From Nakamurella sp. (GTDB taxonomy: Bacteria; Actinomycetota; Actinomycetes; Mycobacteriales; Nakamurellaceae), in assembly GCF_044224575.1 (NCBI RefSeq), contig NZ_JBGAKE010000009.1, forward strand, positions 32,162 to 96,161: a stretch of DNA of 64,000 bases, given 5' to 3'. The position numbers were made by a program, and so were the translations under genes. The notes under the pieces were generated by a model. The model was not told where the DNA came from and made no database searches. It saw only the letters and a program-made list of their open reading frames with translations. The first letter of the stretch is position 1, and each line of letters opens with the position of its first letter. This document shows, piece by piece, positions 56,522-59,279 of the stretch.

Positions 56522-57449
56522 TGGCCGCGAACCGCGCAAACGCCGCGGTGAGCGGCATGTCCGACATTCCCTCGACGAACAGGAATTGGCCCTGCGGGTT
56601 GATCTCCAGGAACACCACGGACCCGTCCGGCCGGATCTTCAGGTCGAAGATGCCCATCCGCAGACCGAGCCGGTCCACCACCGCGCGCAGCGCGTCCTGC
56701 AGGGTCTCGCCCAGCGGGACCGGCTCGACCTGCATGTCGCCGGCCAGGCGCCAGTCGAGGGCGGCGCTGCTGATCTTCGCGGCATGCACGTCCGGGCCGA
56801 ACACCTGAACCCTCAGATGGTCGGTGCCGGGGACCTCCTCCTGAAAGATGGTCGGCGCCAGTCGCAACTCGTTCTCGTCGGTCAGCGAATCCGACCGGAC
56901 CCGGCCCGCCTCCAAGCCGGTACCGAGCAGGCCGGTGAGGGTCTTGCCGATGACCCGGCCGCCCAGGGCGCGAGTGAACTCGCGAATCGCGGCCGGGTCG
57001 CTGCTGACCAGGGTGCGCGGCACGGTGAGCCCAACCTCCCGGGCGATGCGCAGCTGCAGCAGCTTGTTCTGCGCGCGTTCGGTGGCATACGGGTCGCTGA
57101 GCCAGGTTCCGCCGAACGCGGCCAGGAACGCACCGCGGGTGGCGGCGCGACTGTCCTTGACGACGAGTTGCCGCATGGCCCGGTCGGTGACGTACTCCGG
57201 CACCTCGGGCCGGCCGTGGCAACGCCGCCACCACACCAGGCGGAGCCGCGAGATGTCGACCGTGCCACCGTCCTCGGTCGGCAGGGTGGTTGCCTCGGGA
57301 TTCTCGTTGTCCCAGGCGACTCCCCCGGCCGCCGGGATCCGGTCCGCGGCCACGATGGCCACGTCGATGCCGTACGTCTGCGACATCGCCTGCCGGACCA
57401 GGTACGCATGGATGTCGCCTTCCAACGTCACGATCGCCATGTCGGCCAT
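56496..57449 (-). CDS. MvdC/MvdD-like ATP-grasp RiPP maturase (graspetide synthetase)
   Basis: VWWRR, NKLLQL..A.EVGL.VP.TLVS.DP, APTIFQE.VPG...LRV.VFG, DWR, LGL.MG.FDL...PDG..VFLEINPQGQFLF.E. Confidence 0.88.
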   Translation of the reverse strand: MADMAIVTLEGDIHAYLVRQAMSQTYGIDVAIVAADRIPAAGGVAWDNENPEATTLPTEDGGTVDISRLRLVWWRRCHGRPEVPEYVTDRAMRQLVVKDSRAATRGAFLAAFGGTWLSDPYATERAQNKLLQLRIAREVGLTVPRTLVSSDPAAIREFTRALGGRVIGKTLTGLLGTGLEAGRVRSDSLTDENELRLAPTIFQEEVPGTDHLRVQVFGPDVHAAKISSAALDWRLAGDMQVEPVPLGETLQDALRAVVDRLGLRMGIFDLKIRPDGSVVFLEINPQGQFLFVEGMSDMPLTAAFARFAANELALVPA

Positions 57450-57500
57450 TTGCGTCGTCCTATCGATATGTCGACCGGTCAGCCCGGGAGAATGTCTGAT

Positions 57501-57531
57501 TTCAGTGATGCTTCAGTGATGCTTCAGGATG
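57501..57531. repeat. 11-bp direct repeat TTCAGTGATGC x2 plus a degenerate third copy
   Basis: Read directly: TTCAGTGATGC TTCAGTGATGC TTCAG-GATG. Confidence 0.85.
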
Positions 57532-57540
57532 GGCGCGCCA

Positions 57541-57574
57541 GACCGGTGGGGACCCCGCGGGTTCCCCACCGGTC
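57541..57574. terminator. Strong stem-loop between the precursor and ATP-grasp genes
   Basis: GACCGGTGGGGA / TCCCCACCGGTC perfect 12-bp stem with an inner CCC/GGG; no clear U-tract. Confidence 0.7.
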
Positions 57575-57626: not shown

Positions 57627-57815
57627 TCACTCGTCGCAATCGTCCCAGCCGTCGTCGCAGCCGGAGATGGAGCCGCCCGGCCACTTCGGCCGGGCCATCT
57701 GCGGGAGCGAGGCGAAAGCCCTTTTCTCCCAACGGTCGAGTCGCTCCGGGTGCACGTATCCATCGTGAGTCCGGGTGAACCGGCCCGCGACGGGGGCAGT
57801 CGGCATCGCCAACAT
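57627..57815 (-). CDS. Putative graspetide precursor peptide (62 aa; C-terminus PKWPGG-SISGCDDGWDDCDE)
   Basis: AGGAGG RBS 7 nt before the ATG; Ser/Cys/Asp/Glu-rich C-terminus; first gene before the ATP-grasp and ABC genes on the same strand. Confidence 0.85.
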   Translation of the reverse strand: MLAMPTAPVAGRFTRTHDGYVHPERLDRWEKRAFASLPQMARPKWPGGSISGCDDGWDDCDE

Positions 57816-58064
57816 TGCTTAACCTCCTGGATTGAGTTCCGGACCTTGTGTCCGGCAACGCGAATCAGGAGCGGCGACGATCTCCCGCGATACACCGCCG
57901 GCCAGTGAATTCGAGAGTTCCCGCCCTCCTTCACTTTCGCCGCAGCAGGGATCCGGCAGCACCCGTGACGGCTCGAGCGCCGCGGCACCGGCGACGGAGG
58001 AGGGCCGATCGCCGCTGCGGGGCCGGATGTCTCACCACGGGTCCGGTCGATCGCCGGGCGGGTG

Positions 58065-59279
58065 TCAGGACGCGACGATTCCGGCGACCGGGTCGCCGGC
58101 CAGGTAGACCGCGGCCACCGCGCGGACGGCGGCCCCGACGTCGTCGTTCGGGTCGCCGTCGACCAGCACCAGGTCGGCGTCGTGACCGGGGCGGAGCCGT
58201 CCCTTGCGGTCGCCGACACCGCAGATCGTCGCGGCAGTCGAGGTCGCCGCGGTGAGCACCTGCGCGGCGGACAGCCCACCCTCGGCGAACAGGTCGATCG
58301 CCTCCCGGAGGTGACCGTGGGCGAGCCACGGATTCAGTCCGGCGTCGAGCCCGGTCGCCACCGGCACCCCGGCGTCGACCAGCCGGCGGATCATCTGCGC
58401 GCGCCACGCCCGGACGAGTTCGGGCGTCTGCCCGGTGGCCGCTAGATGTTCGCGCACGGCGGGCGGGGCGAGATCCAGATTCGTCGTCGGGGGAATCACC
58501 CCGCTGACCGCCACCTGCCGCTCGGCGAGCGTCGCGAGCAACGACTCCGGCAGCTCGGTTCCGGTGCCCCGAAAGCAGCTGCAGTGCTCGATCCCGTCGA
58601 CGCCGGCCGCGACGGCCTGCTCGATGGCGGTCAGCCAGTGGGCGTGCGCCGTGACCGGCAGGCCGGCGGCGTGGGCCTCCCGCACGATGTGGGCCAGGTC
58701 CCCGTCGGTGAACTGGGTCTGCACCGTTGCGGTGCCGGGCGTCGACATCCCACCGCTGGCCATGACCTTGATCAGATCAGCACCCCGGTCGGCGTGCTCG
58801 CGGATCGCTCGGGTGATGGTCGCAGGTCCGTCGACCGCGCCGCCAAGGAAGTGGCAGTGCCCGGCCGGCACCGTGATCGGCGGACCGGATGCGATCACCG
58901 CCGGTTCCGGAGCGCGTCCCGGGCCGGAGCGAGACCGGTGCCGCAGCACCGCGTAATCGCGATCACCCAGATCGCGGACCGTGGTCACCCCGGCCGCCAG
59001 GTGATGACGCAGCGATTCGCCGATCACCGGTTCCAGGTCGCCGTCACCAGCCGCTCGATCGAGGGCACCCGGCCGGCTGTCACAGACCAGATGGACGTGG
59101 GTGTCGATGAGCCCGGGCAGGGCCGTCAGATCAGTCGCATCCACAATCCGGCAGTCGGATCCGATGTCCGGGTGACCGTCTTCGACGCCGACCACCATGC
59201 CGCCGTCGAGGACGACGGTGGCCGGCCCCGGGGTGAATCCTTGGCCGTCGAACACCCGGGCACATCGGATCGCGCGCAC
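58065..59279 (-). CDS. Metal-dependent amidohydrolase (Xaa-Pro dipeptidase/imidazolonepropionase-like)
   Basis: LPGLIDTHVHL, GVTTVRD.G, IKVMASGG, AHAH, IEHCS, G.L.PG.DADLV. Confidence 0.85.
   Translation of the reverse strand: MRAIRCARVFDGQGFTPGPATVVLDGGMVVGVEDGHPDIGSDCRIVDATDLTALPGLIDTHVHLVCDSRPGALDRAAGDGDLEPVIGESLRHHLAAGVTTVRDLGDRDYAVLRHRSRSGPGRAPEPAVIASGPPITVPAGHCHFLGGAVDGPATITRAIREHADRGADLIKVMASGGMSTPGTATVQTQFTDGDLAHIVREAHAAGLPVTAHAHWLTAIEQAVAAGVDGIEHCSCFRGTGTELPESLLATLAERQVAVSGVIPPTTNLDLAPPAVREHLAATGQTPELVRAWRAQMIRRLVDAGVPVATGLDAGLNPWLAHGHLREAIDLFAEGGLSAAQVLTAATSTAATICGVGDRKGRLRPGHDADLVLVDGDPNDDVGAAVRAVAAVYLAGDPVAGIVAS

Follow-up and report, generated by a model that had tools for sequence, protein, structure and literature searches.

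A small open reading frame (ORF) on the minus strand of the window (the whole stretch of 64,000 nucleotides of Nakamurella sp. DNA that was analysed) appears to encode the precursor of a graspetide from a chemically uncharacterised family. In the reading that we favour, with moderate confidence, the C-terminal core of this peptide would be closed into three nested rings by the ATP-grasp ligase encoded next to it, with Cys53 as the innermost donor, and the product would be released by an ABC exporter. The precursor family is widespread and bioinformatically catalogued, and its core has been listed before (as cluster 5178/270 and as group 28); what is sharpened here is that position 53 is a Ser/Cys-only site, so that the occurrence of a thioester ring in nature becomes a testable idea. 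The features of the locus are collected in Table 1.

Table 1. Features of the precursor locus, with their positions in the window and the evidence on which they rest.
Feature	Positions	Strand	Basis
Precursor peptide gene, 62 aa plus stop	57627..57815	-	ORF, homologues, ATP-grasp adjacency
Ribosome-binding site AGGAGG	57823..57828	-	7 nt before the precursor ATG, read from the sequence
Putative leader recognition element P23-x-x-L26-x-x-W29-E30	57711..57749	-	conservation, predicted helix 24-35
Predicted core peptide G47-E62, GGSISGCDDGWDDCDE	57630..57677	-	position statistics, conservation
Cys53 codon TGC	57657..57659	-	Ser-or-Cys-only site across the family
Cys60 codon TGC	57636..57638	-	small-residue site (Cys/Ser/Ala), missing from the shortest cores
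GC-rich stem-loop, precursor/ATP-grasp intergenic region	57541..57574	-	fold; terminator- or attenuator-like, no U tract
Graspetide-synthetase-type ATP-grasp ligase, 317 aa	56496..57449	-	NCBIfam and PDB sequence matches
ABC exporter, 623 aa, fused permease-ATPase, no C39	54668..56539	-	Pfam, NHLM_micro_ABC1

Translation of the minus-strand ORF (57815..57627) gives the sequence MLAMPTAPVAGRFTRTHDGYVHPERLDRWEKRAFASLPQMARPKWPGGSISGCDDGWDDCDE. Its C-terminus, K44-WPGGSISGCDDGWDDCDE, is encoded by positions 57630-57686 (K44 to E62) and followed by the stop codon at 57627-57629, and the stretch after G47-G48 contains two Ser, two Cys, five Asp and one Glu, with neither Thr nor Lys, i.e. six acidic residues against no basic ones; the translation and a recount confirm what the first-pass annotation had read at this end. 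The candidate donors in the core are S49, S51 and C53, and the candidate acceptors are D58, D59 and D61. That the ORF is genuine, and no chance frame, is attested by the AGGAGG sequence ahead of it, by close homologues in 15 protein clusters (59-97% identity) and by the adjacent ATP-grasp gene, which starts 177 nt downstream on the same strand.

When 1.84 billion representatives were searched with a profile, 56 clusters were retrieved at E<=1e-3, and the core motif of the family reads [S/T]-I-S-G-[S/C]-x-x-G-W-D-D-[C/S/A]-D. An alignment-based search for loci recovered only those resembling the window's leader and was replaced by a scan of 185,579 genomes for a degenerate DNA pattern, with codons 53 and 60 left free, which gave 40 matches. 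In 38 of them an ATP-grasp homologue (37-93% identity) lies immediately downstream, and the other two are unrelated sequences. The members span Actinomycetota, Pseudomonadota, Cyanobacteriota and Acidobacteriota. Synteny was read from called genes and Pfam scans, a greedy longest-ORF approach being unreliable in high-GC DNA; the sole syntenic unit across the relatives is the pair of precursor and ATP-grasp genes, and many relatives are two-gene cassettes. Aligned cores have the form [G/E/A]48-[S/T]49-I-S51-G-[S/C]53-x-x-G-W-D58-D59-[C/S/A]60-[D/K/R]61, followed by 0-6 residues. Among 35 diverse members, S51, G52, W57, D58 and D59 never change; of 61 sequences, 60 have S, T or C at position 49 and 52 have D at position 61. 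The precursor is adjacent to an ATP-grasp enzyme of the graspetide-synthetase clade and has conserved nucleophilic donors and Asp/Glu acceptors in its core, together with a conserved leader recognition motif, so that its assignment to graspetides appears well supported. The earlier proposal of a graspetide-type core beside a graspetide-type ATP-grasp has held up, by homology and by adjacency in all 38 loci; Ser49 and Ser51, which it had named as possible donors, are conserved candidates for this role, and Asp58, Asp59 and Asp61 are conserved candidate acceptors.

The best PDB sequence match of the ATP-grasp enzyme is MdnB (5ig8, E=4.8e-36), with further matches to MdnC (5ig9), AMdnB (7m4s), 9bou, PsnB (7drm) and CdnC (7mgv). 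Against the NCBIfam models it scores 162 bits for TIGR04187 (SAV_5884-type maturase, cutoff 350), 145 bits for TIGR04185 (MvdC, cutoff 425) and 133 bits for TIGR04184 (MvdD, cutoff 475). Since it is homologous to MdnB, MdnC, PsnB and CdnC and yet scores below the curated cutoffs, the enzyme is, judged by homology, a graspetide synthetase outside the named NCBIfam subfamilies.

In the leader, P23, L26, W29 and E30 are invariant or nearly so (alignments A1, A2 and A4). AlphaFold2, run with the 35-sequence alignment, predicts a confident helix at residues 24-35, which covers P-x-x-L-x-x-W-E and is the top-scoring part of the model (block pLDDT about 89); the core is disordered in the model, as expected of an unmodified precursor, and the model gives no hairpin register. 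The same leader motif has been noted for precursor cluster 270 (Makarova 2022, PMC8939145). The Gly-Gly pair, previously taken for a leader cleavage motif, is conserved in the close subfamily only and replaced by C-G, D-E, C-A or G-E elsewhere in the family.

The exporter gene overlaps the 3' end of the ATP-grasp gene and is described as translationally coupled to it. Its product has Pfam domains of the ABC_tran type only, and its match to NHLM_micro_ABC1 begins at profile position 220; because it aligns to peptidase-containing exporters only from this position on, it lacks the C39 peptidase domain, just as had been stated earlier. With such an exporter and with Gly-Gly limited to the close subfamily, the locus falls outside the double-glycine/peptidase-ABC class. 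The exporter is found in the Nakamurella clade and in loci L007, L015 and L030 and is absent in other lineages, and it was rejected as a core component because it occurs in some lineages only. The gene that immediately precedes the precursor encodes an amidohydrolase (58065-59279, likewise minus strand), whose product matches NF051886 (Xaa-Pro dipeptidase-like) with 178 bits, below the cutoff; the leader of the precursor ends with W45-P46. The amidohydrolase was considered as the leader protease and rejected, since it is specific to the window among the compared loci, being absent from the closest Nakamurella locus (L001), where a G6PD gene abuts the precursor in its place, and from all other loci.

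The stem-loop in the intergenic region between the precursor and ATP-grasp genes recurs in four Nakamurella-type loci (the window, L001, L002 and L003), where the base of the stem has changed in a compensatory manner (CCGG/CCGG, GCGG/CCGC, AAGG/CCTT), and its support comes from this comparison with relatives. A scan for consensus promoters and terminators made no calls and left the stem-loop uncalled, and the whole intergenic region folds no better than its shuffles (z = -1.2), the local hairpin alone being notable. In RiPP clusters, a common arrangement yields more precursor transcript than enzyme transcript, and the stem-loop is consistent with this pattern. Also in the intergenic region, upstream of the ATP-grasp gene (57498-57529), there are three direct CTGAA repeats with 11-nt spacing, which read CTGAAGCATCA, CTGAAGCATCA and CTGAAATCAGA on the gene strand; both the units and the distance between them are preserved in L001, a related Nakamurella locus, and they may serve as a binding site for a regulator or belong to an internal promoter. 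The same genome carries a second, divergent ATP-grasp locus (L089; G000, contig C43, about 54.8-55.4 kb), with 37% identity over residues 117-299, two adjoining ATP-grasp-like ORFs and, upstream, a small ORF rich in Gly and Pro, which may be another peptide-modifying cluster.

Position 53 of the precursor is Ser in 48 of 61 sequences (about 80%) and Cys in 11, the two 'G' calls being regular-expression misalignments of TISGS cores; it is Ser or Cys and nothing else, next to positions 54 and 55, which vary freely. The codons used at this position are TGC/TGT, AGC/AGT and TCC/TCG, i.e. both Ser codon families are in use, and TGY (Cys) is a one-step bridge between AGY and TCN. Parsimony on the 44-row ATP-grasp tree requires at least six switches between Ser53 and Cys53, most of them in the clade of 22 rows to which the window belongs, in which the core otherwise hardly varies; of two Terrabacter strains, for example, Terrabacter sp. 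2RAF25 carries Cys53 and Terrabacter sp. 28 carries Ser53. A ring-forming nucleophile would be expected to toggle in this way, while the Ser/Cys-only conservation could also reflect a steric or hydrogen-bonding need instead of use as a nucleophile. Position 60 is Cys in 34, Ser in 25 and Ala in 2 of the 61 sequences, and the commonest combination is Ser53 with Cys60. Residues 60 and 61 are dispensable, as two members (P0045 and P0049) stop at D59, and Cys-free cores exist as well (L005, P0011, P0017, P0019, P0024, P0027 and P0041); judged from these alignments, Cys60 is not an obligatory nucleophile.

These patterns bear on several suggestions of the first-pass annotation. It had proposed either a C53-C60 disulfide or Cys-Asp thioester crosslinks, and had named cysteines that are not conserved among homologues as evidence against them, which the homologue alignment provides in part. 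The cysteines are not both conserved and co-varying, as a C53-C60 staple would demand, and the disulfide is not a family feature, given the Ser53 majority, the choice of C, S or A at position 60, the Cys-free cores and the cores ending at D59. The thioester idea survives for Cys53, at its Ser-or-Cys-only site, and is lost for Cys60. K44, suggested as an amide donor, is not conserved in this role because position 44 is K, R, V, I or S, and the idea of metal binding by the leftover carboxylates loses support because D54 and D55 vary. The label 'unusual' that had been attached to the core was overstated, since the family had been catalogued before and most of its members have Cys60.

On the enzyme side, residue 277 (window positions about 56619-56621), which lies shortly before the E-x-N metal site, tracks the state of position 53: it is His in 9 of 11 Cys53-paired enzymes, and 10 of 11 Ser53-paired ones have Glu, Gln or Arg. 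This residue was the one candidate among enzyme columns co-varying with the Ser/Cys53 state, and its association is not significant (three of four independent contrasts, p=0.25); the window's own ATP-grasp has Ser at residue 277 despite its Cys53 precursor. A thioester ring might be tuned by this residue (His vs Glu/Gln), near the Mg site.

According to the mechanism that we propose, the ATP-grasp enzyme would bind the leader through the P-x-x-L-x-x-W-E helix, phosphorylate the side-chain carboxylates of D58, D59 and D61 and couple these to side-chain groups of residues 53, 51 and 49, respectively. This would produce three nested hairpin-type rings, 53-58 innermost, then 51-59 and then 49-61, with G56 at the turn. 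In the Nakamurella-type lineage the innermost donor would be Cys, not the usual Ser, so the corresponding ring, if made, would be a thioester (thiolactone), and the other two would be oxo-esters. Cys60 would be neither ring-forming nor a conserved disulfide partner and would fill a small-residue site. The product would leave via the coupled ABC exporter, and the leader would be cut by a protease encoded outside the cluster, or retained. The pairing 49-61, 51-59 and 53-58 is inferred from conservation and resembles the 'ring within ring' type named in the graspetide literature. S51 and [S/C]53 are the universal candidate donors and D58 and D59 the universal candidate acceptors, with 49/61 as a third pair; P0040 is without both S49 and D61. 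Subfamilies among the Proteobacterial and cyanobacterial members keep 'C47-x-T49...D61-C62' or 'C47-G-T49...D63-C64', in which the outer acidic residue and the flanking Cys shift together by two, and therefore keep the same strand face.

A thioester in the mature product is plausible, though we would hesitate to expect it; such a bond may undergo hydrolysis, exchange with cellular thiols or rearrangement before or after export. Equally tentative is the proposal that the Cys53 members are the first natural graspetides with an enzyme-installed Cys53-Asp58 side-chain thioester. Under the thioester reading, the Cys53 thiolactone would be evolutionarily interchangeable with the Ser53 ester of sister strains. 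The earlier statement that graspetide synthetases form thioesters with engineered Cys variants agrees with the literature, in which such engineered, non-native thioesters are reported (PMC12291112, PMC13097080).

A different account of the core, corresponding to the first option of the first-pass annotation, is that oxo-esters only are formed, from S49/S51 to Asp, and that C53 and C60 oxidise to a lineage-specific disulfide after export. In its favour, the window peptide, which is accompanied by an exporter, has exactly two Cys, seven residues apart, and every Cys53 member of the close subfamily also has Cys60, with L023 (Cys at both positions) being sister to L005 (Ser at both); moreover, the Proteobacterial and cyanobacterial relatives pair a different set of flanking Cys with Sec-like signal peptides, which suggests that disulfide stapling is used somewhere in the family. 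However, Ser53 with Cys60 being the commonest state, Cys60 is usually without a partner, Cys53 changed to Ser at least five times in the close clade with Cys60 retained, and a structural staple leaves the absence of Ala, Gly, Thr and Asn at position 53 unexplained. We therefore regard this account as rather unlikely.

Still less probable, in our opinion, is that both Cys are free thiols or have roles outside the rings (metal, redox, dimerisation or target), position 53 being simply a small polar site. The Cys-free cores, Ala60 in two members and the variable D54 and D55 are in line with it, but strict Ser/Cys at position 53 in about 60 diverse sequences from several phyla points to selection for a hydroxyl or thiol, and the carboxylates left for a metal are not conserved. 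Finally, the small ORF might not be the substrate of the ATP-grasp at all, being spurious or encoding an unrelated small protein, and the peptide indeed has no family model match in Pfam or NCBIfam; against the strong ribosome-binding site, the protein-level conservation over four phyla and the ATP-grasp adjacency in 38 of 38 loci this is extremely improbable, and the adjacency census has effectively refuted it. The nested-ring graspetide with Cys53 as the innermost donor remains the reading that we prefer.

Among the known systems, the closest descriptions come from two catalogues. Carter et al. (2026) defined a new graspetide 'group 28' (n=120), whose representative precursor from Thermomonospora amylolytica ends with ...HPDETISGSGDGWDDCDYMP (PMC13097080, Fig. 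S5), and reported groups 27, 28 and 35 to comprise synthetase and precursor only. The window precursor has in common with group 28 the leader motif P-x-x-L-x-x-W-E and the core motif [S/T]ISGSxxGWDDCD, the precursor logo of the group, which the window family matches, and the two-gene content agrees with the conserved unit found here. In contrast to group 28, the window has a leader of the RFTR...HPxRLDxWE subtype that ends with WPGG, Cys53 and an added ABC exporter, and so goes beyond synthetase and precursor. The synthetases of the group are defined by membership in one cluster of a sequence-similarity network (alignment score 70). The window enzyme may sit outside this cluster because it has about 42% identity (tblastn E about 1e-64), a borderline value, to the enzyme of L050 (Thermomonospora echinospora), whose precursor is near-identical to the group 28 representative.

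Makarova et al. (2022; PMC8939145) assigned precursor clusters 5178 and 270 to 'branch 3' of the ATP-grasp enzymes, with cluster 5178, the orthologue from Intrasporangiaceae bacterium URHB0013 (L008 here), listed as a distant homologue of cluster 270. The core of the cluster 5178 precursor is identical to that of the window, but in that study the sequence is only listed, the Gly-Gly site and the core are called 'unclear', and the cysteines of the subgroup are left unanalysed. The Streptomyces members of cluster 270 combine the P-x-x-L-x-x-W-E leader with very Cys-rich cores, e.g. ...SESCSCGCSDDCCVDCP, and cores in the superfamily therefore contain between zero and six Cys. We found no chemically characterised member of the precursor family in the graspetide literature. 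An assignment of thatisin (group 16) to the same family is not supported, given its Asp14-Pro15 feature and different group number.

Plesiocin (group 2, PsnB) and thuringinin (group 3) resemble the window core in having donors in the N-terminal arm and acidic acceptors in the C-terminal arm of a short hairpin, and PsnB is a detectable homologue of the window ATP-grasp. The proposed inner ring, with four residues from donor to acceptor, resembles the T-x4-E ring of plesiocin. The connectivity of the window core is, however, predicted only, and the donors in plesiocin and thuringinin are Thr and the acceptors mostly Glu, with no Cys and no invariant Gly-Trp turn. Microviridins (MdnA with MdnB/MdnC) provide the closest solved enzyme homologues and share a helical leader recognition motif (predicted in the window) and side-chain ester chemistry (inferred in the window); unlike them, the window has no T-x-K-x-P-S-D core motif, a single ligase and no Lys donor, and its enzyme stays below the MvdC and MvdD model cutoffs. 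For the interchange of Cys and Ser at a ring-forming nucleophile, nature offers a precedent, by analogy only, in the Agr autoinducing peptides, which contain a thiolactone that is replaced by a lactone in the Ser variant of Staphylococcus intermedius (PMC10482373); there, however, it is the C-terminal carboxyl that is used by AgrB, a protease-type cyclase, and the enzymology is unrelated, without homology.

Seven members from Pseudomonadota and Cyanobacteriota (L022, L024, L046, L059, L063, L067 and L083) have precursors that begin with a Sec-signal-like segment, e.g. MKYPAKLLPAVMMSVSALNVMPQAVMA. In the same seven, a Cys pair flanks the core (C47 with C62 or C64), and position 60 is Ser. This arrangement suggests that rings are formed in the cytoplasm, followed by Sec export and disulfide stapling in the periplasm, which, if true, would be an unusual route for a graspetide.

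Graspetide synthetases are under development as tools for peptide cyclisation, and thioester rings have so far been obtained by engineering only. The family described here offers natural, nearly isogenic Ser53/Cys53 pairs, such as Terrabacter sp. 28 vs 2RAF25 and L005 vs L023. If position 53 is no donor, the locus would be one more member of a catalogued group. With its minimal two-gene cassette and these natural pairs, co-expression could reveal naturally thioester-linked graspetides, and the precursor family could yield the first ring topology for a widespread group that spans four phyla.
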